This document shows, one piece after another, positions 1,965-59,480 of a stretch of DNA of 64,000 bases. Each line of letters begins with the position of its first letter. Within the stretch, counting starts at the first letter, position 1. A program made the translations under genes and the position numbers. Origin of the DNA: an uncultured Prevotella sp. (GTDB lineage: Bacteria; Bacteroidota; Bacteroidia; Bacteroidales; Bacteroidaceae); NCBI GenBank assembly GCA_900315835.1, contig ONAR01000028.1:27289-91288 (forward strand), given 5' to 3'. A model generated the notes under the pieces. That model ran no database searches and was not told the origin of the DNA. It was given only the letters and a program-made list of their open reading frames with translations.

Positions 1965-3626
1965 ATGCACAGCTCCACTTTTTTTCTATCACTCATCATA
2001 CTTGCCACCGTCAACCTTGACTGCTCGCAAGCTGTGGCCCACCCCGCCAATAGTGGCAACGGTGGAGCTGGTGCCGACTCTGTTTTGCTCCGCAACAGCG
2101 ACTATGTGACCGACGCCGACCCATGGCTGCCCTATGGCAATGCGGCGGCGCTCACACGATGGCGCAGCGATAACCTCTCGTGGGCAACGCTCAAGGCCAA
2201 CTACGGCTATGGCGGCTTCGTCAACTACAATGAGAGCAGCCGCGACTTGCGTATCGGCACCGATGTGCGGTCAGTCTATCGGCTGTCGAAGCGCACCGTC
2301 GGCTACGGTCGCATCAGCTACGACAACGCAGGGCTACACAACATGACGGGGTCTGTTTTCATTGCACCGGAGCGCTACCCCTTCAATATCGTCGAAGACT
2401 CGCTGACCAATGCGGGTAAGACCCATCAAGACACTTACCACCTCACGGGCGCCATCGGTGTCGACCTGTGGCAGGGACTGTCGCTCGGTGGACGCGTCGA
2501 TTTCACAGCTGCCAATGCAGCCAAATACAAAGACCTGCGCCACAAGAACAAGCTCATGGACATCGACGCCTCGTTCGCGCTCTATTGGCCCATCTCGACA
2601 TGGCTCAACATCGGTGCCAACTACCGTTACCTGCGCCATAGCGAGAGCCTCATCTTCAGCACCTATTCCAGCAACGACATCACCTACAAGTCGTTCATCG
2701 AATACGGCGGCATGATGGGAATGGTGGAGCAGTACAGTTCCAGTACGACCAACGGACTCACCAGTTCAAGCACCGAGCGACCGCTCTTCTACGACGGTCA
2801 CGGCTACGGCGTTCAGGCAGAGTTGCGTCTCTTGCCCGGTCTGACGTGGACCAATACGTGGGATATGGCTTACCTCAAAGGCTATTACGGCAAGGACACG
2901 CCCTACGACATCGTTTACATGCGCCACCACACGCATCGCTATCGCTTCACCACACGCCTGCAATATCACGCCAACCGCAGCCTCCACCATCTTGATGCGA
3001 GCATCGAAAACGAGAAACTGCGCAACTTCCAGAACCAGTACCGGCTCAGCACCAATGATCACGGCGCCCGTTACTACGAGTATTTCCAGCCGCTGAAGAC
3101 TGCCGACAAGGTGTGGGTGAACACCCACATCGGCTACACCGGCTACTTCGGACTCAACGGCGAGACACCGACATGGCTGGTGCAAGGTGGTGCGCGCATC
3201 GCTTACCGCAAATTGACAGCCTACAACTACCCCTACTACCGGCGTCAGCATTGGACGAGTACCGAGGGCTATCTCAACGTGGCGCGCAACTTATTGATGC
3301 GCAAGGGCATCCTCACCATCGAGGGTGGTTTCTCTTACATCAAGGGGAAGGGCGATCCGTATGAGGACGGCACCTTCATTGAACCAAGCGACAAGCAAAC
3401 GCAACCCGACGAGATGACCACCTTCCTCTACCGGGAATATGCAGCATTGATGGCACCACAATACGCCCTGCGCACAGCGGTGCAATACGCATTCATCTTC
3501 CCCACGACGCAGCTGAAGAGCTATGTGCGCACCGACTTCACCTATCGCCATTGCAATGTCGGCAACGACTATCTGCAAGGCACGATGCACTGGAACCTCG
3601 GCATCACCTTAGGCGTGAATTTCTAA
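1965..3626 (+). CDS. outer-membrane beta-barrel protein (DUF6850-like)
   Basis: N-terminal signal sequence, Gly/aromatic-rich alternating beta-strand pattern, and a terminal ...NLGITLGVNF with the C-terminal Phe typical of BAM substrates. Confidence 0.65.
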   Translation: MHSSTFFLSLIILATVNLDCSQAVAHPANSGNGGAGADSVLLRNSDYVTDADPWLPYGNAAALTRWRSDNLSWATLKANYGYGGFVNYNESSRDLRIGTDVRSVYRLSKRTVGYGRISYDNAGLHNMTGSVFIAPERYPFNIVEDSLTNAGKTHQDTYHLTGAIGVDLWQGLSLGGRVDFTAANAAKYKDLRHKNKLMDIDASFALYWPISTWLNIGANYRYLRHSESLIFSTYSSNDITYKSFIEYGGMMGMVEQYSSSTTNGLTSSSTERPLFYDGHGYGVQAELRLLPGLTWTNTWDMAYLKGYYGKDTPYDIVYMRHHTHRYRFTTRLQYHANRSLHHLDASIENEKLRNFQNQYRLSTNDHGARYYEYFQPLKTADKVWVNTHIGYTGYFGLNGETPTWLVQGGARIAYRKLTAYNYPYYRRQHWTSTEGYLNVARNLLMRKGILTIEGGFSYIKGKGDPYEDGTFIEPSDKQTQPDEMTTFLYREYAALMAPQYALRTAVQYAFIFPTTQLKSYVRTDFTYRHCNVGNDYLQGTMHWNLGITLGVNF

Positions 3627-14472: not shown

Positions 14473-15966
14473 ATGCAGAAAATCATCAATATCGTCGAGG
14501 GCGTCGTACGCATGCCCGCTTGGCGCATGGCTGAACCCGTCAACTTCACAACGCTCGACGGCGAGCAGATTGCTATCTTAGGCCCCAACGGAGGCGGCAA
14601 GACGATGCTCGCCGACATCATCGTGGGCCGACACCCACTGCTCCTCCACGACCCGGAATACGACTTCTCGCCGAGCAAAAAGACCATGGTGGCCGACAAC
14701 ATCAAATACATCACCTTCCGCGATGCCTACGGCGGTGACAACGACCGCACCTATTACCTGCAACAGCGATGGAACCAGATGGAGATTGACGAGAACACGC
14801 CCACCGTCGGCAAGAAGCTGCAGGAAGCCTACGACCTGGCCCTCAAGACTGAGGGCGTCGAGGCTGACCAGTTGACGCAGCAGCGCGACCACCTCTACAG
14901 TCTCTTCCACATGCAGCCGTTGCTCGATAAGCCCATCATCCTGCTTTCAAGCGGAGAGCTGCGCAAGCTCAAGCTCACGGAAACGCTGCTCACGCAGCCC
15001 CGCGTATTGATTATGGACAATCCGTTTATCGGCCTCGATGCCGATACGCGGCAGCAGTTGCGCGACCTCTTGGGCAGCATCGCCAAGGAAGGCCGTCTGC
15101 AGATCATTCTCATTCTTTCGAAGACCGACGACATTCCGCCCTTCATCACCCACGTGGTTGAGGTGGACCACATGATTGTCCGCCCGAAGAAGACGCTGGC
15201 TGAGTTTGAGGCCAGCCGTCCTACCCTGCCCGACCACATGCTCAGTCAGACAATGCACGATGCCATCGTCGCCTTGCCCTACACCCATAAGGAATACCAC
15301 ACCCACGAAGTGGCCCGCCTCAACAAGGTCTGCATCCGTTACGGCGAGCGCACCATCCTCAAAGACCTCGACTGGGTGGTCTGCAACGGTGAGCGTTGGG
15401 CGCTGAGCGGGCAAAACGGCGCCGGCAAATCGACGCTGCTCAGCCTCATCTGCGCCGACAACCCGCAGAGCTATGCCTGCGACATCACGCTCTTCGACAT
15501 GCCCCGCGGTACCGGTGAGAGCATCTGGGATATCAAGCGCCACATCGGCTACGTCTCACCCGAGATGCACCGCGCCTACCAGCGCGACATCCCCGCCCTG
15601 CGCATCGTGGCCAGCGGTCTGAAGGACAGCGTGGGCCTCTACGTCAAACCCACCGATGAGGAACTCGAAGCCTGCCGCTTCTGGCTCGACGTCTTCGGAT
15701 TGAAAGACAAGGAGAACACCACCTTCCTCAAGCTGTCGAGTGGCGAACAGCGCCTCGTGTTGCTGGCGCGCGCCTTTGTCAAGGACCCCGAACTGATTAT
15801 CCTCGACGAGCCGCTGCATGGTCTTGACGACCGCAACCGTCGGCTGGTGAAAGACGTCATCAACGCCTTTGTCGAGCGCCACAACAAGACGCTCATCATG
15901 GTCACCCACTATGCCGAGGAGCTGCCCGCTTGCATCGACCACAAGCTGCGGCTCATCCGTCATTAA
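14473..15966 (+). CDS. ABC transporter ATP-binding protein, two fused ATPase domains (ModF-like)
   Basis: Two Walker A motifs (GPNGGGKT, GQNGAGKST) and two signature motifs (LSSGELRK, LSSGEQRL). No TM segments. Confidence 0.85.
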   Translation: MQKIINIVEGVVRMPAWRMAEPVNFTTLDGEQIAILGPNGGGKTMLADIIVGRHPLLLHDPEYDFSPSKKTMVADNIKYITFRDAYGGDNDRTYYLQQRWNQMEIDENTPTVGKKLQEAYDLALKTEGVEADQLTQQRDHLYSLFHMQPLLDKPIILLSSGELRKLKLTETLLTQPRVLIMDNPFIGLDADTRQQLRDLLGSIAKEGRLQIILILSKTDDIPPFITHVVEVDHMIVRPKKTLAEFEASRPTLPDHMLSQTMHDAIVALPYTHKEYHTHEVARLNKVCIRYGERTILKDLDWVVCNGERWALSGQNGAGKSTLLSLICADNPQSYACDITLFDMPRGTGESIWDIKRHIGYVSPEMHRAYQRDIPALRIVASGLKDSVGLYVKPTDEELEACRFWLDVFGLKDKENTTFLKLSSGEQRLVLLARAFVKDPELIILDEPLHGLDDRNRRLVKDVINAFVERHNKTLIMVTHYAEELPACIDHKLRLIRH

Positions 15967-15986
15967 CCATCCATCCCACCATACCC

Positions 15987-16074
15987 ATCCAACCCTATCA
16001 CCCCATCCACCCCATTCAACCCATTCCCCCATCCAACCCATTCACCCCATCCACCCCATTCAACCCATTCCCCC
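15987..16074 (+). repeat. 2 x 44-bp tandem repeat, C-rich and G-free
   Basis: atccaaccctatcaccccatccaccccattcaacccattccccc (15987-16030) is followed by atccaacccattcaccccatccaccccattcaacccattccccc (16031-16074), with 2 mismatches. The array ends at the ATG of the next gene. Confidence 0.9.
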
Positions 16075-17850
16075 ATGCGTCAGTTTAAACTTTTCCTCAT
16101 CGCGGCCGCGCTCTTGCTGCTCCCGCAAACCAACATTCTTGCAAAGACGCCGAAGCGGCAGAAGGCCAAAGCCACGATGGAGCTGCGCGTTGTCGAGACC
16201 AGCGACATGCACGGCAGCTTCTTCCCCTATGACTTTCTCAACCATCGGCCGAAGGCTGGCAGTACGGCTCGCGTCAGCAGCTATGTCAACGCCCTACGCC
16301 AGCAGTATGGTGACCGCCTGCTGCTCTTCGACAATGGCGACATCCTGCAAGGGCAGCCACTGAGTTATTTCTCCAACTTCATCGACACCACCGACGTCAA
16401 CATCGCCGCACAGGTGGTCAACTACCTGCGCTATGACGCACAAACCATTGGCAACCACGACATTGAGCCGGGCCATAAGGTTTACGACAAATGGATGAGC
16501 GAGGTGAAATGCCCCGTATTGGGCGCCAACATTATTGATACGAAGACCGGTCAACCCTACGCCAAGCCCTACGCCATTATTGAGCGCAACGGCGTCCGTA
16601 TCGCCGTTCTCGGCATGCTGACGCCCGCCATTCCCAACTGGCTGTCACCCGACATCTGGTCGGGACTGCGCTTCGACGACATGGTTGCCACGGCCCGGCG
16701 ATGGATGCCGGTGCTGCGCAATAAGGAGAAAGCCGACGTCGTTATCGGGCTGTTTCATTCGGGTAAGGAAGGCGGCATCACCACCGACACCTACATGGAG
16801 GATGCCTCAGAAGTAGTTGCCAGAGAGGTACCGGGCTTCGACCTCGTATTGTTCGGCCACGACCACACACGCCATAACGACACCGTTACCAACACCGCCG
16901 GCCATCAGGTGGTTTGCCTCGACCCCGCCAACAACGCCATGTCAGTAGCCGATGCCCGCATCTGCTTGTCCAAAGCCAATGGCAAATGGACCGTCGACAG
17001 CATCAGGGGAAGCATCAACAGCGTTGCCAACCTGCCCATCGACCAAGCCTATGAAGACCATTTCAAGGCTTATATAAATAAGGTGAACCGGTTCAACGAC
17101 GAGCCCATAGGCACCTTCAAGCATACCATACGCACAGCCGACTGCTATTTCGGCAATTCGGCCTTCAACGACCTCATCCTCAACCTCGAGCTGAGCATCA
17201 CCGGCGCCGACATCGCCTTCACTGCTCCCCTGCTCTTCAACGACAGCATCAAGGCCGGACCGGTGGCCATGAGCGACATGTTCAAACTTTATAAATACGA
17301 GAACATGCTCTACGTGATGCGTCTCACCGGCGAGGAGATACGCAAGCATCTCGAAATGAGCTACGACCTCTGGTTCAACACCATGACCGGCCCCGACGAC
17401 CACCTGCTTTTGCTCGACCGGCGCACCGGTGGCGACGCCCAGCGCATGGGCTTCAAGAATCTGTCGTTCAACTTCGACTCGGCGGCAGGCATCGACTACA
17501 CTGTCGACGTCACCAAGCCTAACGGTCAGAAGGTGACCATCCTCCGCATGAGCAACGGCCAGCCCTTCGAACCGAAACGCTGGTACCGCGTGGCCATCAA
17601 CAGCTACCGTGCCAACGGCGGTGGCGAACTGCTCACCCGAGGCGCCGGCATCCCCAAGGACAGCCTCGCCAGCCGCATCGTCTGGAAGTCAGACCGCGAC
17701 CAGCGCTACTACCTCATGCAGGAAATCAAACGGCAGAAGGTGCTCGACCCGCAACCCAACCACAACTGGAAGGTGATACCCGAGGACTGGACTGCGCCCG
17801 CCGCCAAACGCGACCGCGACCTGCTGTTCTCGCACCACACAACAAAATAG
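16075..17850 (+). CDS. bifunctional metallophosphatase / 5'-nucleotidase (UshA/CpdB-like), secreted
   Basis: Signal peptide. Calcineurin-like motifs ETSDMHG, NGDILQG, GNHD and GHDH, plus a C-terminal 5'-nucleotidase domain. Confidence 0.85.
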   Translation: MRQFKLFLIAAALLLLPQTNILAKTPKRQKAKATMELRVVETSDMHGSFFPYDFLNHRPKAGSTARVSSYVNALRQQYGDRLLLFDNGDILQGQPLSYFSNFIDTTDVNIAAQVVNYLRYDAQTIGNHDIEPGHKVYDKWMSEVKCPVLGANIIDTKTGQPYAKPYAIIERNGVRIAVLGMLTPAIPNWLSPDIWSGLRFDDMVATARRWMPVLRNKEKADVVIGLFHSGKEGGITTDTYMEDASEVVAREVPGFDLVLFGHDHTRHNDTVTNTAGHQVVCLDPANNAMSVADARICLSKANGKWTVDSIRGSINSVANLPIDQAYEDHFKAYINKVNRFNDEPIGTFKHTIRTADCYFGNSAFNDLILNLELSITGADIAFTAPLLFNDSIKAGPVAMSDMFKLYKYENMLYVMRLTGEEIRKHLEMSYDLWFNTMTGPDDHLLLLDRRTGGDAQRMGFKNLSFNFDSAAGIDYTVDVTKPNGQKVTILRMSNGQPFEPKRWYRVAINSYRANGGGELLTRGAGIPKDSLASRIVWKSDRDQRYYLMQEIKRQKVLDPQPNHNWKVIPEDWTAPAAKRDRDLLFSHHTTK

Positions 17851-20596: not shown

Positions 20597-20698
20597 TTAC
20601 TTCTCAGCGGGCTCCCATTTGCAGCGAACGGGCGAGACAATGGCGCCATCGGCCTTCAATTCCTTCATTGCCTTATCCACCTTTTTGCGGTCGAGGTC
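20597..20698 (-). pseudogene. 3' remnant of a small winged-helix DNA-binding protein gene
   Basis: Minus-strand frame reads ...[33 protein letters not shown]. This resembles the C-terminus of the approx 70-aa wHTH proteins of Bacteroidota/Firmicutes (recalled from memory). There is no start codon, and similarity stops exactly at the repeat-element border (20700). Confidence 0.5.
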
Positions 20699-20699
20699 G

Positions 20700-21130
20700 G
20701 AAAATAGCGGACAGAATCGTGTATGAGTTTTCTGTTGTTCCAGCGCTGGAACCACGCCGAAAATTAGATGGCGCAACGTAAAAAGGGCCCCGAAGACACC
20801 CTAATTGCCTTGCCGCATTGCGACAACTATGGTTCCGCATCGCGATAGCTATAGTATCGCACTGCGATAGCTATGGTATCGCAACGCGATAACTATGGTA
20901 TCCCACCACGATAGCTATGCTATCGCGACTCGATAACTATGCTATCGCGATGCGTTAGATAGCCTATCCAACCGCCATTCAAGTAATAATCTTCGTAGTT
21001 TGCTGATCAATAGCGACTTATGGAAACGAGCTTAAAACCGCCTATTTTTGCGTTTTTCGGAGCCAAGTAGGTCTTTGTTCATTTCAAGGCCCTTCTCAGG
21101 GGCCTAAAAACACCAAAGTTTTTGACAAAA
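20700..21130 (+). repeat. structured non-coding repeat element, copy E1 (116-bp arm A + 7 x 22-bp array + approx 160-bp arm B)
   Basis: Aligns end to end with the reverse complement of 50337-50734. Shared landmarks are gaaaatagcggaca..gttgttccagcg..gccttgccgc, the 22-bp array, gctg.t.a.t.atagcgactt, and taaaaa.caccaa...tttgacaaaa. Confidence 0.85.
20816..20969 (+). repeat. tandem array of seven 22-bp palindrome-containing units
   Basis: Units start at 20816, 20838, 20860, 20882, 20904, 20926 and 20948. Consensus is caNcGCGATAGCTATGGTATCG, and each contains CGATA-N7-TATCG. The outer units are degenerate. Confidence 0.9.
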
Positions 21131-30380: not shown

Positions 30381-31460
30381 TTACTTCACATAGACCACAG
30401 CGAGGCGGTTAGAAGTAGTACCCTGAACGCCCTTGCCGTTAGCCTCGTCAACGACGACACCCTTGCTCTTCAGGTATGCTGTCTGCGCGAGCCTGAGAAA
30501 TCTTCTGGTTGTTTCCTTGCTGCCTTCAGGAGAAGCAGTACCAACGATCTCAACGTGCTTGCCGCTCTTGATGCCGTCAAGAGCCTTCTTGGCCTCACGG
30601 CTCAGAACGGACTTGCCCTGGGCGAAAGTGACGAACACGAGGTTCTCCACCTTGACTTCCTCGGCGGGAGCCTGTCTCACAATTTCCTTAATCACCTCCT
30701 TGGGCTCCTTGGCAAGCTCCCGGCGCAGGTCATTGATCTGGCTGTTCAGACCGTCAATCTCGCTTTGGTCGCGGGCCTCAAGCACCTTGAAGTTGTGCGT
30801 GCCGTTGGAGTTGAGGAATTTATAGGCAATGCCGGCGTTGAGCTCAACGTAGCTGTGGTTGATGTGGTACTTCACGCCACCGTTGGAAATGTCGTAGTTG
30901 GCAGGGTCGCTCTTGTCGTTCAGTCCATAGAGGATAGCCGGCTCCACATAAGCCTGCCACTGCTTCTTGTTGCCGAAGTTGAAGGCGAAGTCGAGGCCCA
31001 ACTTTGATGTGAGGTTGTTGGGATACGTCTTCTTATGGCTGCCGTCGGTGCGCTCGTTGTTGTAGCCGAAGATGTGGCCCCAGCCGAGACCGGCCACGGG
31101 AATGAGTTCGAAGAAGCGGGGCTCTCCCTTGTAGCCGCCGAACCAGTTGAAGAGGTTCACCGTTCCTATCAAGCTGGTGTTGAGGTAACGCACGGCGGTG
31201 CTTGTGCTACGGAACGGCTTGTCGGAGAAATAAGCATTGCTCTCAACAGCGACACCCAAGACCGGGGTGAACCAGCGGCCGACGCGGATGCCAAAGTTCG
31301 GATCGAGGCCTTTCATCCAGGCATGGCCCGTGGTCTTTGTGGCGAAGCCGCCGTTCACGCCCACGTAGATGTTGTCCAACGTCTTGCTATACTGTACGGT
31401 CTGGGCGCTTGCACCTGCCGCAATCATGGCAGCGGCGACCAGAGAAACTAACTTTTTCAT
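30381..31460 (-). CDS. OmpA-family outer membrane protein, paralog 1 (Pgm6/7-like) with altered peptidoglycan-binding motif
   Basis: Signal peptide, N-terminal beta-barrel, a coiled coil (QSEIDGLNSQINDLRRELAK) and a C-terminal OmpA-like domain. It is 359 aa, a paralog of 35727..36806, and its last approx 100 nt are identical to that gene. Confidence 0.9.
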   Translation of the reverse strand: MKKLVSLVAAAMIAAGASAQTVQYSKTLDNIYVGVNGGFATKTTGHAWMKGLDPNFGIRVGRWFTPVLGVAVESNAYFSDKPFRSTSTAVRYLNTSLIGTVNLFNWFGGYKGEPRFFELIPVAGLGWGHIFGYNNERTDGSHKKTYPNNLTSKLGLDFAFNFGNKKQWQAYVEPAILYGLNDKSDPANYDISNGGVKYHINHSYVELNAGIAYKFLNSNGTHNFKVLEARDQSEIDGLNSQINDLRRELAKEPKEVIKEIVRQAPAEEVKVENLVFVTFAQGKSVLSREAKKALDGIKSGKHVEIVGTASPEGSKETTRRFLRLAQTAYLKSKGVVVDEANGKGVQGTTSNRLAVVYVK

Positions 31461-31749: not shown

Positions 31750-34700
31750 TTACTTAACTTCTATTTTCTTGTTGTTCCAAATATAGATACCTTTCTCAAG
31801 GCCGTCTGTAGTTGTAGCCCCACGCCTTACCAGCATGCCAGAGAGGGTATAGACGTTGCCTTTGGTCATGGGCTTCCTGCTAATCTCGCTGATGCCGGTA
31901 ACGGTGTCGCCGCTGATGATCTCGTCGCCGACAGCCATTGGGACTCTCTTTGCGGCACTGCCGCCGAAATTGATGGAATTGTCGTCGGTCATGTAGCAAC
32001 GCAAGCCGCGGAACTTGTTCACGGCTCCATTCACATAGACCATCTCCGCATTTCCACTTGTCGGCTTCAGAAGGAACGAGTAGAAGCCTGAGCCAACTGC
32101 GCCGAGCTTGTATGTGCCATGCCACGTAATCTTTGTTGCCTCCCAGATGGCGCAGGGGGTGTGGACAAATGAGAGCTCCCTTACCGTAGAGTCGTTCTCA
32201 GCCGTGTCGTAGCTCATGCCATGAATGAGGTAGCACTTGGCAGCAACATAGTCGCTGCCCGTCATGTTCTTCTCGTTGCCGGCTTTCTCATCGGCCAGCG
32301 TGCCGCTGCCGTTGTCGGCCGCAATGTTGCCGTCGATAGTCTCATCGCTGATGTTATCCACCTTGATGATATACGGCGTGTTCTTATGAAGCAGCACGTT
32401 GTTGCCATAGGTCTTGTCAATATAGAACTGCACGAAGTTGGGAGTGTCGGTGCGGAAGTCGGCGGGCTTTGCCAGGCGGGCCTTGCTGCCGAAGGTGGCG
32501 GCGAACTGATTGTAGGTCATATCCACCGGAAGGCAGATGGTAGTCCACATGCCCTGAGCAAAGGAGCGGTTGAGATACATCTTCGTGTTGGTGTAGTCGT
32601 GGGTCTTGTCGAGGGCCGTCTCATTCTCATCCACGAGGAAGGCCACGTTCGGGCAGCTCTCGTCGTCCTCGTAGTCGGGTATGCCGTCAGCGTCGGCATC
32701 AGAGAAGATGCGCATGCCGTAGTAGGACTCGCCATCTTTCAGTGCCTCCAGCACGCCACCGTCACTGATGACAATCTCATCGAAGTCGGCATTAGGCGTC
32801 CAGCGCACGGTATATTTGCCGCCAGTGCCAACAACCTTGGCGTCAAGCGTGTTCCAGTCTGTCTTCTCAGCCACTTTCTGTCCATTGAGATAAGCGTCAA
32901 TCTTGAACACCTTGGCGGCATCGACATTGGCCAGACCAACAATATTGCCCATCGTGATTTCCACCAGATGCTTGCCGGAATAAATCTTTCCCAACTTAAC
33001 GGGGATGACGTTGAACTTGCCTGCTGCACTGACCGTGTTGGCCACCGACAGGTAGTCGTCAAGGTTACCGTCGATGAAATTGGTATAGTTCTCCTTCAGA
33101 CCAACCACGGTAGCTACGCCGCCGAAGCCGCCAAGGAGCGTCTCATCGATACGCGCGCCGTTGTTGTAGCTGACAATCTCGCCCGTCGCGGCCTGCTCTT
33201 CTGCAAACTTCTGCGCGTCGGTGGCATCCTCGCTGAAGGCGTAATACACCTGCACCTTGCTTAGGTCGAGGTTCAACGTAGTGTTGTTGCAAAGCAGCAG
33301 CTCATCCACGTCCTGGTCTGCCTCAAGCTCAACATTGAACTCTGTGGTCGTCTCCTGACTCGTATTGGCGAGGTCAGCCTGCAGCAATTTGAAGTTATGG
33401 TCGCGTGAGACCACCGTAAGCTCCTTACCACCGCCATTGTAGGCATATACTTTCATGGAGTTGAGAAGGTCAACACTGAGCACGTTGGCCGGGAACTTCA
33501 GCACGAAGCCCACCACCGTTCTCTTATCGAGGTGCAATGGGACTGAGCGCTGAACGGCAGCAATGACCGTGGAGCCGGCAAGCTGCAAGCCGCCGACATA
33601 GCTCATGTAGTCGTCAACGGAGCCATTGACAAGGTTGGCGGTATCCTTTTGATTGTCCAACTTGATGAGGGTGAAGCCATTGATGCCTTTCTTCTTCATG
33701 TCTTTATCGGTCATAACGGAATAGGAGACGCTGGGGTCGGTGAAGTTGTTCACCCAAGGCATGGCCGTAGTGTTATATAGACGCTGCACGCCGTAGTTGA
33801 CGGTGGTGGTGCGGGTAGCCTTCGTCGTATCGTCGGTAGCTTCGAAGGTGTAGGTGCCGCCCTTGACAAATCCAGATACTGTGCAGCTCATGTGGTCGGC
33901 TGCATCATTGAGCTTGAGGCTCTTTCCATTATCAGAATTGCACTTCCATGTGACGGGGCGGTTGCTCTTCAGCACCACGTCCTTGGCATCCTCGCAGATA
34001 GTCTGCGCGGCTGAGACGCGGAGCGTGTCGTCAGCATCGATGGAGGGAGGAAGCACGACAAACATGCGGTAAGCCACGGTAGCGCCAAGTCCCAAAATGC
34101 TCTCAGCCCTGAGCTCGACAGCATTGCAATCCTCAGTAAGGGTGGTGATGACGTCCTTACGGCCACCGCCAAGGTCAAGCCCAAGCAGGGTGAATTCTCC
34201 ATCGTTGCCACCCTTGGGAGCCTCCTTCCAGCTCCAAGGGTGGCTAAACAAGCCTGTCTTGTGGCTGGGCGTCATGATATAAGGATGCAGCTTGACGGAA
34301 GATCCCACACCAAGAATGCCGGCGCCTGCTGTCTCGAAGCCTACCGTCATGCCCTTCTTGAAAGGAAGGTTGTTGGCCTCTGCGCCACCATAGGCAGAAA
34401 CGGTTACTGGCGTCCACACCGAAAGCAACGCATTGGTACTGACGTCCACAGAATTGTCGGGATTGTCGTCAATGGTCTTGCCGTTAGCATCAGGAGTCTT
34501 TTGCAAATCTGTGATACACTGACCCAAGACAAGTTTGTCGTTGTCAAAAGTGGTTCCAGGGTATGCTTTCTTCACAGCCTCCTTGAAATCCTCAATGCCA
34601 TTGGTCTTCTCACTGTCGATGAAGTATTTGCCGTTCTTGCCAACAAACGCATACTTCACCGTCATGGCACCGGCGACTTTGGCATTTAAAGCCTGAGCAC

Positions 34701-35211
34701 TGCTAAGACCTATCTCGTCAAAGTCGGCAGGGGCCTTGGCTGCAAACTCCAGGGTGTTCTTGCTAAAGGATGCAAGTTGAAGCTTAAGTAAGGAGCCTTG
34801 TTTTTGCTCGCAAGAGACAGAAGCTATCTCTTTGCCGTCCTTATAGAAGAAAATCCTCATAGGGACATCTATGACATCAAGTTTCAGCACGCTGTTGTCA
34901 ATTGTGACAACGAAACCGGCCGTGGTGCCCTTTGCATAGACGTGCTTTACGTCGCGTACGGTGAAAGTAGGCTCTATGCCTATCTCCGCCTTGACACCGT
35001 TGTAAAAGGGCGCGCCGTTGTCAAGGTTCTTATCGACCAAATACTCAAGGTGAGAGATACCACCGACCACAGACACCGTGGTGTTGAGCCGGTTCACCAT
35101 GCAGTTGGCACCTACCAACGCATGGCGGCGGTCAAGATAGTTCTTGCCCGTGGAGAGTGTGTCCTGATAAACAAGTTTTGAAACATTTGCATCGATGGCC
35201 GATACAGACAT
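31750..35211 (-). CDS. large T9SS-secreted surface protein (as sequenced, lacks its signal peptide because of a frameshift)
   Basis: C-terminus ...GNVYTLSGMLVRRGATTTDGLEKGIYIWNNKKIEVK is a T9SS CTD. There are three internal modules of roughly 180 aa sharing L[VI][DN]GN[LV]DDY ... FDE[IL] ... Y[AG]F. A Ca-binding-like DADADGIPDYEDDESC is present. The ORF starts at MSVSAID with no signal sequence. Confidence 0.85.
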   Translation of the reverse strand: MSVSAIDANVSKLVYQDTLSTGKNYLDRRHALVGANCMVNRLNTTVSVVGGISHLEYLVDKNLDNGAPFYNGVKAEIGIEPTFTVRDVKHVYAKGTTAGFVVTIDNSVLKLDVIDVPMRIFFYKDGKEIASVSCEQKQGSLLKLQLASFSKNTLEFAAKAPADFDEIGLSSAQALNAKVAGAMTVKYAFVGKNGKYFIDSEKTNGIEDFKEAVKKAYPGTTFDNDKLVLGQCITDLQKTPDANGKTIDDNPDNSVDVSTNALLSVWTPVTVSAYGGAEANNLPFKKGMTVGFETAGAGILGVGSSVKLHPYIMTPSHKTGLFSHPWSWKEAPKGGNDGEFTLLGLDLGGGRKDVITTLTEDCNAVELRAESILGLGATVAYRMFVVLPPSIDADDTLRVSAAQTICEDAKDVVLKSNRPVTWKCNSDNGKSLKLNDAADHMSCTVSGFVKGGTYTFEATDDTTKATRTTTVNYGVQRLYNTTAMPWVNNFTDPSVSYSVMTDKDMKKKGINGFTLIKLDNQKDTANLVNGSVDDYMSYVGGLQLAGSTVIAAVQRSVPLHLDKRTVVGFVLKFPANVLSVDLLNSMKVYAYNGGGKELTVVSRDHNFKLLQADLANTSQETTTEFNVELEADQDVDELLLCNNTTLNLDLSKVQVYYAFSEDATDAQKFAEEQAATGEIVSYNNGARIDETLLGGFGGVATVVGLKENYTNFIDGNLDDYLSVANTVSAAGKFNVIPVKLGKIYSGKHLVEITMGNIVGLANVDAAKVFKIDAYLNGQKVAEKTDWNTLDAKVVGTGGKYTVRWTPNADFDEIVISDGGVLEALKDGESYYGMRIFSDADADGIPDYEDDESCPNVAFLVDENETALDKTHDYTNTKMYLNRSFAQGMWTTICLPVDMTYNQFAATFGSKARLAKPADFRTDTPNFVQFYIDKTYGNNVLLHKNTPYIIKVDNISDETIDGNIAADNGSGTLADEKAGNEKNMTGSDYVAAKCYLIHGMSYDTAENDSTVRELSFVHTPCAIWEATKITWHGTYKLGAVGSGFYSFLLKPTSGNAEMVYVNGAVNKFRGLRCYMTDDNSINFGGSAAKRVPMAVGDEIISGDTVTGISEISRKPMTKGNVYTLSGMLVRRGATTTDGLEKGIYIWNNKKIEVK

Positions 35212-35726: not shown

Positions 35727-36806
35727 TTACTTCACATAGACCACAGCGAGGCGGTTAGAAGTAGTACCCTGAACGCCCTTGCCGTTAGCCTCGTCAACGA
35801 CGACACCCTTGCTCTTCAGGTATGCTGCGCGAGCCTGAGAAATCTTCTGGTTGATTTCCTTGCTGCCCTCGGGAGAAGCAGTACCAACGATCTCAACGTG
35901 CCTGCCGCTCTTGATGCCGTCAAGAGCCTTCTTAGCTTCCTTGGTCAGAGCGGTCTTGCCCTGTGCGAACGTTACGAATACGAGGTTCTCAACCTTAACT
36001 TCCTTAGTGGTAGCGGGAGCTTCCTTAACAACTTCCTTAACAACCTCCTTAGGCTTCTTAGCGAGCTCGTTGCGCAGGTCGTTAATCTGGCTGTTCAGGC
36101 CATCAATTTCGCTCTGGTCACGGAGCTGAGCGATCTTGAAGTTGTGAGTGCCGTTAGAAGTCTTGAACTTATAAACGACACCGGCGTTCAGCTGTGCGAA
36201 AGCGCGGTTGATGTTGTACTGGACATCGTCATAGCCGAAACCGTTGAGACCCCAAACCATAGCGGGCTCGATGTAGATCTGCCAAGCCTTGCTCTCACCG
36301 AGGTTGAAAGCGAAGTCGAGACCGGCCTTAGAGGTCAGAGAGTTGGCACGACCAATCTTGCTTGTATTGAAATCGGGATCTGCCTTACCAACCAGTGCGT
36401 TGCCCTTGGTGCCGAAAGTATGACCCCATCCGAGGCCATAGAGAGCGCTCACCTCGAAAGTACGGGGCTCACCCTTGTAGCCACCGAACCAGTTGCTCAG
36501 GTTAACGGTACCCAGCAGGCTGGTGTTCAGGGCGCGAACAGCAGTGCCGTTGCTCTTCCAAGGCTTGTTGGAGAAATAAGCGTTGCTCTCAACAGCCAGA
36601 CCGAAAACCGGAGTGAAGTTGCGGCCGATGCGAACACCGAAGTTGGGGTCGAGACCCTTCAACCAAGCGTGGCCAGTAGCTTTGGTAGCCACACCACCGT
36701 TGATACCGACATAAATGTTGTCGAAAGTCTTGCTCTCCTCAACGGTCTGAGCAGATGCGCCAGCTGCAATCACGGCAGCAGCGATCAAAGTAAATAACTT
36801 TTTCAT
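35727..36806 (-). CDS. OmpA-family outer membrane protein, paralog 2 (canonical motif)
   Basis: Same architecture as paralog 1. It retains GTASPEGSKEINQKISQARAAYL (the N-x2-[LI]-S-x2-R-A peptidoglycan-binding motif). Confidence 0.9.
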   Translation of the reverse strand: MKKLFTLIAAAVIAAGASAQTVEESKTFDNIYVGINGGVATKATGHAWLKGLDPNFGVRIGRNFTPVFGLAVESNAYFSNKPWKSNGTAVRALNTSLLGTVNLSNWFGGYKGEPRTFEVSALYGLGWGHTFGTKGNALVGKADPDFNTSKIGRANSLTSKAGLDFAFNLGESKAWQIYIEPAMVWGLNGFGYDDVQYNINRAFAQLNAGVVYKFKTSNGTHNFKIAQLRDQSEIDGLNSQINDLRNELAKKPKEVVKEVVKEAPATTKEVKVENLVFVTFAQGKTALTKEAKKALDGIKSGRHVEIVGTASPEGSKEINQKISQARAAYLKSKGVVVDEANGKGVQGTTSNRLAVVYVK

Positions 36807-47810: not shown

Positions 47811-47921
47811 ATTTTGTTATCCCTTATATATTTTTCTCCACTATGTCACATGCGGCTGGTGGCCGGCACAAGGCCGGCCACTACACTGGCACCTAAGCGA
47901 AACCGCCTCAGGGCCATCGTC

Positions 47922-50336: not shown

Positions 50337-50734
50337 TTTTGTCAAATTAATTGGTGATTTTTTAACATGGAGACGGCGTTATTTGCGAACAAGTCGTCCG
50401 TCGGTCAGCATACGGCCGCTACGCGAGAGTTTTAGCAAGTCGCTATAAATCAACAGCTTACATTGTTTAAGGTCTAAATCTCGGTTGAATCAGGCCACTA
50501 AGAGGCCGTCATCAGATACTTATCGTGGTGCGATAGCATACCTATCGCGGTGCGAGAGCATAGCTATCGCGATGCGATACCATAGTTATCGCGGTGCGAA
50601 AGCATAGTTATCGCGATGCGGCAAGGCAAAAACGCCGGTTTCCGCGCTGTTTTTTCGTTGTTTCATCCATAATTGGGCGTCGTTTCATCGCTGGAACAAC
50701 GCAAAACCCGAACACGATTTTGTCCGCTATTTTC
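50337..50734 (-). repeat. structured non-coding repeat element, copy E2 (inverted relative to E1)
   Basis: The reverse complement aligns with 20700-21130, with roughly 70-80% identity in the arms by eye. It contains the 22-bp array at 50509-50618. Confidence 0.85.
50509..50618 (-). repeat. tandem array of five 22-bp units (four well conserved)
   Basis: cgatagcatacctatcgcggtg (50531), cgagagcatagctatcgcgatg (50553), cgataccatagttatcgcggtg (50575) and cgaaagcatagttatcgcgatg (50597), plus one degenerate unit at 50509. These are the reverse complement of the E1 unit. Confidence 0.9.
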
Positions 50735-50853: not shown

Positions 50854-51423
50854 CTAAATCTCATCCAACTTGCGCCGCTGTTGGCCGTGGAGGCGCTTGA
50901 ACTGCGACGGTGTCATACCGGTGACACTCTTGAACTGGCTCGAGAGATAGGCTACGCTGGAGTAGTTCATCTCCAAAGCAATCTGCGACAGCGTCAGCTC
51001 GTCGTAGGTCAGCAGCTCCTTCACCCGTTCGATGCGCTGTTCGATGTAATAGCGCTCGATGGTCTTTGAGGCATATTCGGAGAAAAGCTTCGACAGGCTG
51101 GAATAATCCTGATGCAGCTCCTGCCGGAGATATTCGGAGAGGTTGACCTGCGCGTTGCCCTGCTGATAGTGGACCAGACGGATGACGGCGGCCTTGATCT
51201 GCGCGATGGTCTGTTGCCGACGGTCGTCAAGCAATTCGAAACCGAGCTGCTGCAACCGTTGTTGGAGGGCGGTGCGCTGACCGGCGGTCAGTTCACCCTC
51301 AACCACAGCCTTGCCCAGCTCCACGCTGACCGGCCGGAGCGACTGCTGGCGCAAAGCGTCGTCAACAGCCATCACACACCGGTCACAAACCATGTTCTTA
51401 ATAAATAAGGCGGTCTCCTTCAT
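50854..51423 (-). CDS. AraC-family transcriptional regulator with N-terminal HMA-like CxxC domain
   Basis: N-terminal FIKNMVCDRCVMAV. C-terminal AraC HTH (LTLSQIALEMNYSSVAYLSSQFKSVTGMTPSQFK). Confidence 0.8.
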   Translation of the reverse strand: MKETALFIKNMVCDRCVMAVDDALRQQSLRPVSVELGKAVVEGELTAGQRTALQQRLQQLGFELLDDRRQQTIAQIKAAVIRLVHYQQGNAQVNLSEYLRQELHQDYSSLSKLFSEYASKTIERYYIEQRIERVKELLTYDELTLSQIALEMNYSSVAYLSSQFKSVTGMTPSQFKRLHGQQRRKLDEI

Positions 51424-55040: not shown

Positions 55041-55946
55041 TTAGCGGCGCTTAGAAGTTGAACGCTTTTTCGTAGTTGTCTTCTTCGTGGTCGTTTTCTT
55101 TGTGGTCGTTTTCTTTGTGGTCGTCGACGATGCGGTAGCGGCCTTGTAATACTTCAGCGCCTCAGGCATTTCCTTCTGCAGGGCAGCGATACGCTTGGCA
55201 TCGCTGGGGTGGTCGCTGAAGATATCGCTCTGATTGCTGCTGGAACCGGATGCCATACGCTGCCAGAAAGGAATAGCCTGCTCGGGGTCGTAACCAGCCA
55301 TTGCAGCGAAAATCAGTCCGATGTGGTCGGCCTCGCTTTCGTTGTCGCGGCTGTATTTCAGATTGGCAAACGAGAAACCCTGCTGGGCAATGGCTGAGGC
55401 CACATCACCCACACCGTTGCCAACGGCCGAATTGAGCACCGTTCCGAGAATCTGTGTGCCATACTGCTGACGGATCTGCTTCGACATCTGCTCAGCCGAG
55501 TGCTTGGCGACGGCATGCGCAATCTCGTGGCCGAGCACGATGGCCAGCGAAGCCTCGTTCTGCGTATAAGGCAGAAGACCCTCATACACGACAATCTTAC
55601 CGCCGGGCATACAGAATGCGTTGGCTTCCTTGTTCTGCACAAGGTTGAACTCCCAACTGAAGTTCTGAATCTCCGAAGACATGCCGTTGTTCTTCAGATA
55701 GGTCTCAACAGCTGAGGCCAGCCGCTGACCGACCCGCTTCACCATAGCCGTATTGGTGGCATTAGTGGATACTTTGGCCGTCTTCATAAACTTATTGTAT
55801 TCCTGATTACTCAGGCTCAGCACCTGGGCATCAGATACCAACAGCGTGTGTTTGCGACCCGTAACAGGTACTGTAGACGTCGTACCGCAGGCTGCCATCA
55901 ATAAGGCAGCCGCCATCGACAAAACTAAAAACTTGATACTTTTCAT
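55041..55946 (-). CDS. M48 family zinc metallopeptidase lipoprotein with Lys/Thr-rich tail
   Basis: MKSIKFLVLSMAAALLMAAC lipobox, HEIAHAVAKH zinc motif, and a C-terminal (TTTKK)x4. The track start at 55994 is a TTG, so the ATG at 55946 is preferred. Confidence 0.85.
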   Translation of the reverse strand: MKSIKFLVLSMAAALLMAACGTTSTVPVTGRKHTLLVSDAQVLSLSNQEYNKFMKTAKVSTNATNTAMVKRVGQRLASAVETYLKNNGMSSEIQNFSWEFNLVQNKEANAFCMPGGKIVVYEGLLPYTQNEASLAIVLGHEIAHAVAKHSAEQMSKQIRQQYGTQILGTVLNSAVGNGVGDVASAIAQQGFSFANLKYSRDNESEADHIGLIFAAMAGYDPEQAIPFWQRMASGSSSNQSDIFSDHPSDAKRIAALQKEMPEALKYYKAATASSTTTKKTTTKKTTTKKTTTKKRSTSKRR

Positions 55947-57059: not shown

Positions 57060-59480
57060 ATGTCTGAGAACGACAATATCCAACAGCAAGAAGTTCAAGA
57101 GGAGGGCTTAAACCTCCAAGCACTGTGGCTGCTTTTCAGCAGTAACTGGAAATGGTTTGTGATTTCTGTCATCGCCTGCCTTCTCTTGGGCATGTATTAT
57201 GTCAAGAAACAGCCAAAGCAATATACGCGCTCGGCCATCGTACTCATCAAGGACGAGACCAAACAGCAAGGCATCAGCGACATTTCGAGTGTATTCTCGA
57301 ATATGGGCTACAACATGGGCCAAACCAACGTAAACAATGAGCTCTACAACATTCAGGCCCCATCGGTGCTGCTCGAAGCAGGCCGTCGGCTCGGGTTGGA
57401 TATGAACTATATCGTTCCCGGCACCTTCCACGACTATGAGCTATATGGCAAGACGCTGCCGGTTACGGTGCGCTTTATGGGTCTCAGCGACGACGAGATG
57501 GCTTCGCTCAAACTGGAACTGAGCCCCAATGGCAAAATCAAGATGTCGGAGTTCACACGCGATGGAGAAGTCATGGGTGAGGACCAGACGGTTGAAGGTT
57601 TCGTCAATCAGGTCATCAACACCCCTGCCGGTAAGGTCATCGTGAAGCCGACCAGCTATTTCGGCTCCTTTGTTTCTGAAGACAACCTGCCTATCACCGT
57701 CTTCCGCTCCACGCTCTACAGCATGACGACTGAGCTGCAGTCGCGCCTGTCTGTGGCGCTGGCTGACAAACAGTCGTCTGACCTCAACATCAGCTATACC
57801 GACGTCATCCCGGAGCGCGCCACCGACGTGATCAACACCATGATAAGCGTTTACAAGGAGCAGTGGGTGAAGGATAAGAACCAGGTCATCAGCGCTACGT
57901 CGAAGTTCATCAATAACCGTATCGCTATCATCGAGAAGGAACTCGGCGGCCTCGACGCCAACATCTCGTCTTACCGCAGCTCTCACCTCATTCCCGACGA
58001 GCAGTCAACCGCCGACCTCTATATGCAGCAGTCAAAGGATGCCAACAAGCAGTTGATTGACCTCAGCACCCAGCGCGCTATGGCCACTTACGTGCGCGGC
58101 ATGCTCTTCCGCAGTACGAAGAACCACTACCAGCTGCTCCCGGCAAACTCGGGAATAGACAACCAGTCCATCGAGAAAGAGATTTCCGCATACAACACGC
58201 TGCTCATGCAGCGCAACCAGCTGGTGGCCAACTCGTCGACCAAAAACCCCATCGTGGAAGATTATGATGAGCAGCTTGCCGCCATGCGTAAGTCGCTGCT
58301 CTCTGGCATCGACAACCTCGTAGCCGGAATCAACGCGCAAGTAGGTCAGGCGCAGCTTGAGGAGAACAAGACCAAGCAGCGTATCGCGCAAGCTCCTGGT
58401 CAGGCTGAATATCTGCAGAGCGTAGGACGTCAGCAGAAAGTGAAGGAGCAGCTGTATATCTTCCTCCTCCAAAAGCGTGAGGAGAATGAGCTCTCGCAGG
58501 CTTTCACCGCTTACAACGTACGTGTAATCTCTGCACCTTTCGGTTCCAACAGACCCGTATCGCCAAAGTCTAAGCAGATTATGCTTATCGCACTGGTATT
58601 GGGTCTCATTATCCCGGCCGGCATTCTCTTGCTCATCGAGAACATGAATACCCGCCTGCGTAACCGCAAGGATCTCGAGGATGTGAAGGTTCCTCTGGTT
58701 GGCGAGGTGCCTTATGGTAATCAGATTAAGTGGTACAAGCGCCTGACCCGTAAGGATATGGATAAGGATAAGCTCAAACTCGTTGTGAAGGAAGGCGGAC
58801 AAGACATGATGAATGAGAGCTTCCGCTTGCTTAGAACAAAGGTGGACTACTTCCTCGGCAACAACAAGGAGAAGAACGTCCTCTTGCTTACTTCATTCAA
58901 TCCGAATAGTGGTAAGACCTTCCTCACCCTTAATACAGCCGCAGCCATGGCCATCAAAGGCAAGAAGGTGCTTATCATAGACTGCGACCTGCGCAAGGCT
59001 TCGATGTCAACGTTCGTAAATTCTCCGAAGAAGGGACTCTCACTTTACCTCAACGGCATGAGCGACAATCCACAGGAGCTAATTGTCAAGTCAGCACATA
59101 TCGACAACCTCTACCTGATACCGGTTGGAGTGATGCCGCCTAACCCCGCAGAGCTTTTGGCTAATGGTCGGTTGAAGACGCTTCTGGATGAGCTTCGCGA
59201 CCAATACGACGTCATCCTCTTAGACTGTCCGCCAGTGGAGGTTGTAGCCGATACCGAAATCATTGCATCCTATGCCGACAATACGCTCTTCGTGGTGCGT
59301 GCAGGTCTCCTCGAACGCTCTATGTTGCCTGAGCTCAACCGCATCTACGATCAAAAGAAGTATCCGCACATGGCATTGATTCTCAACGGCACTTCTGTCA
59401 GCAAACGCTACGGCTATGGCTACGGTTACGGCTATGGCTACGGCTATGGTACCGACTATAAATACGGAAACAAGAAATAA
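57060..59480 (+). CDS. wzc: polysaccharide co-polymerase / tyrosine autokinase (Wzc-like)
   Basis: Two TM segments flanking a large periplasmic coiled-coil domain. Walker A SFNPNSGKTF. C-terminal tyrosine cluster RYGYGYGYGYGYGTDYKY. Confidence 0.9.
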   Translation: MSENDNIQQQEVQEEGLNLQALWLLFSSNWKWFVISVIACLLLGMYYVKKQPKQYTRSAIVLIKDETKQQGISDISSVFSNMGYNMGQTNVNNELYNIQAPSVLLEAGRRLGLDMNYIVPGTFHDYELYGKTLPVTVRFMGLSDDEMASLKLELSPNGKIKMSEFTRDGEVMGEDQTVEGFVNQVINTPAGKVIVKPTSYFGSFVSEDNLPITVFRSTLYSMTTELQSRLSVALADKQSSDLNISYTDVIPERATDVINTMISVYKEQWVKDKNQVISATSKFINNRIAIIEKELGGLDANISSYRSSHLIPDEQSTADLYMQQSKDANKQLIDLSTQRAMATYVRGMLFRSTKNHYQLLPANSGIDNQSIEKEISAYNTLLMQRNQLVANSSTKNPIVEDYDEQLAAMRKSLLSGIDNLVAGINAQVGQAQLEENKTKQRIAQAPGQAEYLQSVGRQQKVKEQLYIFLLQKREENELSQAFTAYNVRVISAPFGSNRPVSPKSKQIMLIALVLGLIIPAGILLLIENMNTRLRNRKDLEDVKVPLVGEVPYGNQIKWYKRLTRKDMDKDKLKLVVKEGGQDMMNESFRLLRTKVDYFLGNNKEKNVLLLTSFNPNSGKTFLTLNTAAAMAIKGKKVLIIDCDLRKASMSTFVNSPKKGLSLYLNGMSDNPQELIVKSAHIDNLYLIPVGVMPPNPAELLANGRLKTLLDELRDQYDVILLDCPPVEVVADTEIIASYADNTLFVVRAGLLERSMLPELNRIYDQKKYPHMALILNGTSVSKRYGYGYGYGYGYGYGTDYKYGNKK

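Follow-up and report, generated by a model that had tools for sequence, protein, structure and literature searches.

A dispersed 22-bp minisatellite with variable unit number in intergenic DNA of an uncultured Prevotella lineage, probably a module of REP-like mosaic repeats

The DNA analysed here, referred to as the window, is a stretch of 64,000 nucleotides from an uncultured Prevotella sp. (contig ONAR01000028.1), and the element in question is an array of seven head-to-tail 22-bp units at positions 20816-20969 (array A). The array is probably one copy of a dispersed, hypervariable and non-coding minisatellite, which in this lineage forms a module of mosaic intergenic repeats associated with repetitive extragenic palindromes (REPs) and REP-associated tyrosine transposases (RAYTs). 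The unit of the minisatellite is the 15-mer CGATAGCTATGGTAT followed by a variable 7-mer, with an exact period of 22 bp and usually five to six units in an array. A first-pass annotation of the window had described the seven units as strictly phased, spacer-less, non-coding and palindrome-containing, and this is borne out by direct reading of the sequence and by Tandem Repeats Finder (20813-20948, period 22, 6.2 copies, 80% matches and zero indels). Five internal units of array A are good and the two terminal ones are degenerate. A second 22-bp array was reported by the same program at 50516-50620 (array B), and it is likewise non-coding with units that abut without spacers. The motif CGATANCTATNNTATCG (at most two mismatches) occurs 11 times in the window, 9 of these inside arrays A and B, against 0.21 expected from shuffles; none of 100 shuffles reached 11. 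Each array is embedded in a common larger element of about 400-430 bp with the layout LEAD-array-TAIL. The two copies of the element, at 20700-21127 (+) and 50340-50734 (-), are mutually inverted and 29.6 kb apart, and their homology runs past the array on both sides, through a LEAD of about 115 bp (GAAAATAGCGGACA…TTGCCTTGCCGCAT) and a TAIL of about 160 bp. The left end of the LEAD is sharp and common to about 12 copies. No conserved open reading frame (ORF) was found in the LEAD/TAIL element, and its LEAD and TAIL displayed no conserved RNA structure or covariation.

When a pattern of two units was run against about 185,000 species-representative genomes, just four loci were obtained, three of them in metagenome-assembled genomes (MAGs) of Prevotellaceae; the reference-genome loci in other Prevotellaceae MAGs have short or diverged arrays. 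Nothing similar to the array was found on viral contigs (pattern scan), plasmids or phages (both by blastn), and no Prevotella repeat of such a kind was found described in the searchable literature. A pattern scan of metagenome contigs gave 84 stretches, all from four samples and often several on one contig. Re-scanning of these loci, cited below by L numbers, yielded 86 arrays; they represent 72 distinct sites, or 61 when a site is defined by its far flanks only. The first-pass annotation had suggested that copies be looked for elsewhere, and they exist in this number. One assembly has 44 array loci on 23 contigs in 2.16 Mb, about one per 49 kb. The metagenome contigs that supplied the loci stem from several strains, and any number per genome is an estimate. 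An array has 2-8 units; most frequent are 5, in 37 arrays, and 6, in 25. From core to core, 365 of 366 spacings measure exactly 22 bp. All the sites are intergenic: 20 between convergent, 18 between tandem and 11 between divergent genes, with 22 at contig edges. Relative to flanking tandem genes, 12 arrays have the same and 6 the opposite orientation. Among 83 neighbouring genes no Pfam enrichment was observed; they hold 110 families, each at most three times, with no functional theme. In addition, a near-perfect array of 5.3 units (L003:4159-4275) ends a 4.3-kb contig that was binned as 'Synergistaceae'. This contig is probably mis-binned, given that its units do not differ from those of the Prevotella family.

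The 15-mer is almost invariant over 379 units from the 72 sites and the next 7 nt are variable (CGCGGTG, CGCGATG, CGCACTG, CGCACCG, CGCATCG, CGCGACT, GACGGTG and others), although these units were picked at no more than three mismatches, a biased set in which the conservation of the 15-mer is inflated. In the same units the 7 nt separating CGATA from TATCG are near-invariant and asymmetric. The triplet between TATCGC and GCGATA is variable, and its variants come in reverse-complement pairs (GAT 54 and ATC 19, GGT 45 and ACC 25, AGT 7 and ACT 28). Because this triplet varies in reverse-complement pairs while the 7 nt stay invariant and asymmetric, the symmetric entity is TATCGC-N3-GCGATA or the inner ATAGCTAT, and not CGATA-N7-TATCG, which had been put forward as the half-sites of a dimer. 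The palindrome arms carry about 170 one-sided changes against 0 compensatory (restoring) doubles; therefore it is the sequence that is conserved and not the pairing of a hairpin. The arrays are polar, mostly ending …CGACT, CGATG, and the order of unit variants changes from site to site, the variants being shuffled between arrays. A few copies of the LEAD/TAIL type (L061:143-400, L082, L034/L053) have an array core (GCTATGG segment) that runs opposite to the LEAD, while the N3 triplets hold their orientation relative to it, which implies that segments between the palindromic arms were inverted.

The anatomy of the unit also bears on another explanation, that the array is a phased protein-binding platform. 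A putative dimeric protein would coat five to six palindromic sites (TATCGC-N3-GCGATA or the inner CGATAGCTATSG) at about 60 loci, and the candidate binders would be nucleoid-associated proteins, gyrase- or IHF-like proteins as on the bacterial interspersed mosaic elements (BIMEs) of E. coli, or an insulator. Such a platform would be compatible with an origin as a mobile repeat. It agrees with a 15-mer that is kept as sequence while the flanks differ, with the exact period and the narrow range of unit number, and with a central triplet that is free to vary and flip, as the spacer of a symmetric site would be. On the other hand, there is no candidate protein: the neighbouring genes are unrelated, and the sole adjoining ORF of a DNA-binding type is a truncated one-off. 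The divergence between strains and the free drift in unit number given below both fit neutrality, and the invariance is explainable by recent amplification or gene conversion besides being inflated by the selection of units. Moreover, 22 bp is 2.1 helical turns, so that over six units the phase slips by about half a turn and the sites would leave a single face of the helix, on which the first-pass annotation had envisaged about 7 dimers. We consider the platform unlikely, though it deserves to be kept in mind. Less probable still is the wider proposal that the arrays are about 60 phased nucleoprotein platforms across the chromosome, with a putative dimeric binder on TATCGC-N3-GCGATA every two turns, or that they serve some mobilisation machinery other than RAYT as its recognition module. 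If either were true, the arrays would be a Bacteroidota counterpart of functional BIMEs with a tunable unit number.

The arrays occur in three settings, namely at the apex of long inverted composites, within LEAD-array-TAIL elements, and alone in unique DNA. The composites are made of REP-like GTAG-hairpin modules and short tandem repeats in the order M4- M3- HP2- HP1- (array) HP1+ HP2+ M3+ M4+. HP1 lies within 90 bp of the array at 27 of 72 arrays, and the LEAD-array-TAIL type, to which the window copies belong, makes up about 12 of the 72 sites and has the most degenerate units of all. In each of HP1, HP2 and HP3, the strand that points to the array reads GTAG and then a G+C-rich hairpin. 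This is the arrangement by which REPs are defined (GTAG or GTGG 0-2 nt 5' of a G+C-rich hairpin; PMC6006769), yet the loop of HP1 is 7 nt long against the 2-5 nt of the rules. There are 116 copies of HP1 in 818 kb, and of 32 inverted HP1 doublets 8 hold an array inside and 24 hold other recurrent inserts of 84 or 191 bp. The full composite of L028 folds into a single long hairpin (-212 kcal/mol, z = -18.8), of which the array forms the apex.

Several observations on the modules themselves may be added. HP1 inverted doublets with highly conserved inserts were seen in both orientations at many loci (L009:4825-5068, L026:8037-8280, L036:1038-1281, L017:2283-2419, L052:1843-1979 and L091:3392-3528), and the 191-bp insert appears to be the 84-bp insert plus about 107 bp. 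These doublets are a separate family like the REP doublets forming hairpins (REPINs), using the HP1b loop variant GGCCTGGTGCC. Other tandem modules are M4 (GCGGTAATGTT), M8 (GCTGAGGGTTT) and GGGGTACCACGA at L055:1308-1365, and tandem arrays with a period of 22 bp or 11-12 bp seem to recur throughout the repeat system.

A further explanation would be an RNA-level cis element, whose run of GCGAUA…UAUCGC hairpins, if transcribed at the ends of genes, could behave as REPs do and block 3' exonucleases, terminate transcription or form a small RNA. The strand of array A is, even alone, strongly self-complementary (z = -5.4). Sites between convergent genes are over-represented, the LEAD carries an A-tract, a hairpin and a T-tract beside the array, and roles of this kind have been reported for REPs (PMC6006769), as has promoter activity for segments of BrickBuilt, a repeat of P. 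gingivalis discussed below (PMC4596501). However, the one-sided changes in the arms without a restoring double speak against a conserved hairpin, LEAD and TAIL are without conserved structure or covariation, and the arrays take either orientation relative to tandem genes, some of them even lying between divergent genes. Nothing in the whole window matched Rfam at the gathering thresholds, and at E<=1 there was just sub-threshold eukaryotic noise. We therefore hold an RNA element to be quite improbable. A tRNA/tmRNA scan was empty, and a scan for sigma-70 promoters and terminators around site A, the intergenic site of element A, which leaves out Bacteroidetes-type promoters, stayed at chance level.

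A locus that resembles a REPtron was found in L055. It codes for a RAYT-like ORF of the Y1 type (about 2656-3170 on the minus strand, 171 aa, motifs NHIH / WQ / YICLNP), which matches Pfam Y1_Tnp with 34.4 bits (cutoff 23). Its best NCBIfam match is the REP-associated tyrosine transposase (65.8 bits, E = 3.6e-18), the IS200 model reaching 27.7 bits. The ORF is bracketed by HP1 within less than 1 kb, with a doublet at 2306-2440 and another copy at 3263-3296. Since its score lies below the NCBIfam equivalog cutoff of 80, it may represent a divergent RAYT subclass of Bacteroidota. Between the HP1 doublet and this gene, at L055:2441-2640, there is an unrelated 22-bp tandem array of about nine units (CACCAATACCGTTTGCGGCAAA).

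The arrays vary between strains in the manner of a minisatellite. Unit number differs at 9 of the 18 sites that were seen in more than one sample, a variation which the first-pass annotation had proposed to look for, and site B (that of element B) has exactly one extra unit in two other samples (L022, L077). In five of the nine differing sites, the compared pair is without a single substitution in about 680 bp of flanks. Between strains, units are gained or lost faster than point mutations arise. Point divergence between strains is 1.6% inside the arrays, which is similar to the 2.4% in the upstream flanks. At site A the spacer has an identical length of 720 bp in four strain contigs, and every strain sampled from the same species has the element. 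Of 16 substitutions in the strain that diverges most (20697-20819 compared with L007/L023), 12 fall in the LEAD of about 120 bp and 0 in about 240 bp beyond the array. Several of the LEAD substitutions shift toward the family consensus (…ATTTTTGCC, GCATCG), and these patchy differences look like a gene-conversion tract from another copy.

The gene order across site A is kept in two relatives, with DUF4738 proteins of 91% and 79% identity, that are without the element there; their spacers of 214 and 247 bp are unalignable with the window. The 79% relative has different short tandem repeats of its own in the orthologous spacer (AAGAATAAGCTAAG… and CCTACCTTGCCTATCATCG… at L094:4305-4551), and repeat-rich intergenic DNA may be common in the clade.

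The first-pass annotation had compared the array with plasmid iterons, partition centromeres and the ends of Tn7-like transposons, while noting that no matching protein gene was in sight. The latter point holds: a Pfam scan of the 50 ORFs of the window gave functions that were all housekeeping or unassigned (cytochrome bd, GidB, RuvC, ilvBNCD-type, FolD, Ffh, aromatic amino-acid biosynthesis, P-type ATPase, capsule export and rml), and there was no Rep, no ParA, ParB or ParR, no tnsA-E, no other transposase and no cas gene among them. Its exclusion of a CRISPR array was likewise correct, since the units abut without spacers and cas genes are missing from the window. The functional classes themselves did not survive. 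Iterons, a partition centromere of the parC, sopC or parS kind, or Tn7-like ends spanning 20.8-50.6 kb would share the form of tandem units of about 22 bp with dyad symmetry, and two inverted arrays 29.6 kb apart could recall the two ends of a transposon. Yet iterons would call for an adjacent Rep and one origin locus, whereas the arrays occupy about 61-72 dispersed chromosomal intergenic sites with no origin-proximal cluster and have no plasmid, phage or viral relatives. A centromere fits no better, as Par genes are neither present in the window nor enriched among the 83 neighbours and the sites are spread over many contigs. As for Tn7, the DNA between the two arrays consists of housekeeping genes (ilv, folD, ffh and aromatic biosynthesis) and the gene order is unbroken in a relative lacking the element; arrays A and B are therefore not transposon ends. 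Of the 5-bp target-site duplication and the terminal TGT…ACA that mark Tn7-like elements, neither was seen by eye at the element ends, in a comparison without a clean empty site. Any of these three is hardly credible. What did stand is the general placement of the array in mobile DNA, which was loosely right.

A small ORF adjoining element A, with a weak match to Rep3_C (E = 0.16, non-significant), was considered as the missing cognate protein or Rep and rejected. It belongs to a family of 240 representative proteins (at E<=1e-3) whose intact members have about 59 aa and are winged-helix-like, and in 0.9 Mb of fetched DNA it was seen at no site other than A; the context of P0122, the intact homologue closest to it, is unrelated. 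The sequence breaks off exactly at the LEAD terminus, with the N-terminal half lost, and no second copy of the fragment was found. It is therefore a truncated gene, a casualty of the element and not a partner protein.

It is very improbable, too, that the arrays are operators of a transcription-factor regulon, for example of the AraC-type gene at 50854-51423 that adjoins array B. Palindromic units in intergenic DNA would suit operators. But the genes at the 83 neighbouring positions share no functional theme, a promoter is missing where genes converge, as they do around many arrays, the orthologous sites in relatives keep the genes without the element, and the arrays are accompanied by common flanking modules of a non-regulatory kind.

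If the array is indeed a minisatellite module of REP/RAYT-associated mosaic repeats, it could have travelled as a DNA passenger enclosed by REP hairpins that RAYT mobilises in trans. Mobilisation could proceed via single-stranded intermediates, with the composite folded as one long hairpin. Recombination and gene conversion among copies could also be contributing to spread or homogenisation, and solo arrays would arise when flanking modules are lost. Units would be gained and lost by replication slippage or by unequal exchange between self-complementary units. Any effect on the host, as terminator or mRNA-end hairpins or as a protein-binding platform, is putative and would be secondary.

A number of observations weigh against such a history. 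The 22-bp unit contains neither GTAG nor GTGG and is not itself a REP, and elements A and B, whose degenerate LEAD/TAIL subfamily would be older, have no REP nearby that would explain their spread. A repeat search detected no terminal inverted repeat between the LEAD and TAIL termini of the window-type element, and inspection by eye at about ten LEAD/TAIL copies revealed no target-site duplication. Neither an exact filled-versus-empty junction nor a transposition event was caught, the intergenic DNA of the relatives being unalignable. A scan of 0.9 Mb for the motifs of the Bacteroidetes RAYT signature gave the ORF of L055 only, this ORF stays below the equivalog cutoff and has no sequence match in PDB, and the HP1 beside it is the HP1b loop variant, whereas HP1a adjoins the arrays. 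Array orientation displayed no bias relative to local GC skew (25 versus 27). Selection for protein binding, and not recent spread or gene conversion, could be what keeps the 15-mer nearly invariant from site to site. The biased choice of units and the mixed strains behind the counts, already mentioned, belong here as well.

In layout the closest described analogue is BrickBuilt, a miniature transposable element with inverted repeats (MITE) in P. gingivalis (Klein et al. 2015, PMC4596501), for segments of which promoter activity was demonstrated. It is likewise from Bacteroidales and consists of a leader, a spacer-less minisatellite of 22-23 nt (23 nt in BrickBuilt) and a tail, and it is always intergenic, present in tens of copies, without an encoded transposase, narrow in host range and different in copy number between strains (PMC4596501). 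The unit sequences are unrelated (AGAYCATARTATCCTCTCRTRTG versus CGATAGCTATGGTATCGCNNNG). BrickBuilt has 12-bp terminal inverted repeats common with resident insertion sequence (IS) elements (PMC4596501), which the window-type element of Prevotella does not have, and unlike BrickBuilt the Prevotella unit is itself palindromic and the array also sits between REP-like hairpins and alone. The element resembles MITEs in general in its size (about 400-430 bp, in the MITE range of 50-1000 bp), in being multi-copy and intergenic without a transposase ORF, and in its presence or absence among relatives, as neither the 91% nor the 79% relative has it at the syntenic site. Terminal inverted repeats are not found in the LEAD/TAIL type, although the REP-flanked composites do have long inverted arms.

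In the logic of the system, BIMEs and REPINs with RAYT in E. coli and Pseudomonas (PMC6006769) come closest. These too are mosaic intergenic elements in many copies per genome, in which inverted pairs of GTAG-hairpin REPs are combined with other short motifs; a Y1/HUH RAYT-like gene with the same REP on both sides of it, as in L055, and the potential for long hairpins are further likenesses. BIMEs repeat the REP itself in alternating orientation, whereas in Prevotella a distinct, GTAG-less 22-bp direct repeat lies between the REPs. The Prevotella repeats also depart from REP/RAYT systems in the loop length of HP1, the low equivalog score of the RAYT-like ORF and the REP-less copies of the window. 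With variable number tandem repeats (VNTRs) the arrays have in common head-to-tail units (10-100 bp) and a strain polymorphism in unit number that outpaces point mutation, but classical VNTRs are single, locus-specific arrays while the Prevotella unit family is found at about 60 loci with common flanking modules. Iterons, par centromeres and Tn7 end sites are similar in having dyad-symmetric repeats of about 20-22 bp in helical phase; unlike them, the Prevotella array has no cognate gene, replicon or transposon context and lies at dozens of dispersed chromosomal sites.

These findings remove a false lead, as the window hides neither a plasmid origin nor a centromere or a Tn7-like island. They document a repeat-rich intergenic architecture in an uncultured yet widely sampled Prevotella lineage, and they extend the themes of REP/RAYT and of a 'MITE with minisatellite' within Bacteroidota. 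The arrays break short-read assemblies (22 of 72 sites are at contig edges), and they are ready-made multi-locus VNTR markers for tracking strains in gut and rumen metagenomes. If the arrays bind protein, which would be the most interesting outcome, they would offer a convenient natural system for phased binding with a variable number of sites.

Positions, strands and particulars of the repeat features and the gene remnant in the window
Feature	Positions	Strand	Particulars
Array A	20816..20969	+	cores at 20821, 20843, 20865, 20887, 20909 and 20931; degenerate last unit from 20953; nearly invariant in four strain contigs
LEAD of element A	20700..20815	+	begins GAAAATAGCGGACA; A-tract / short hairpin / T-tract adjoining the array; aligns with copy B
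TAIL of element A	20970..21127	+	…ATAGCGACTT…TTTCGGAGC…GGCCC hairpin…AAAACACCAAA…TTTGACA; CACCAA after ATAGCGACTT
Array B	50509..50620	-	four good units and one degenerate; inverted relative to array A
LEAD of element B	50621..50734	-	inverted alignment with element A: 219 nt, 79%
TAIL of element B	50340..50508	-	more diverged; common blocks ATAGCGACTT, CTTGTTC, CACCAA…TTTGACAAAA
Solo HP1 (REP-like hairpin module)	47854..47889	+	GGCTGGTGGCCGGCACAAGGCCGGCCACTACACTGG; same mosaic repeat system, no array beside it
Truncated gene remnant, winged helix-turn-helix-like	20597..20704	-	C-terminal ~33-35 codons and stop, cut exactly at the LEAD terminus

The window holds some other repeated sequences. 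Two paralogous ORFs of 359 aa (30381-31460 and 35727-36806, both on the minus strand) are 5.35 kb apart with 74-98% nucleotide identity in blocks, and an ORF of 1153 aa (31750-35211, minus strand) sits between them; all three are without a Pfam match at E<=1e-5. At 15966-16080 a 9-bp tandem repeat (CCATCCAAC-like) of about 11 copies, with a higher-order period of 44 bp, fills the gap from an ABC-ATPase gene to the start of a 5'-nucleotidase ORF. As called, the 5'-nucleotidase has 591 aa in the strain contigs L005, L006 and L008 but 557 aa in a fourth, L007. Two other short tandem repeats lie at 55069-55124 (TTCGTGGTCGTTTTC x3.7, in an intergenic gap) and at 59407-59459 (GCTACG x6.7), the latter near the 3' end of a Wzz/tyrosine-kinase-like ORF.

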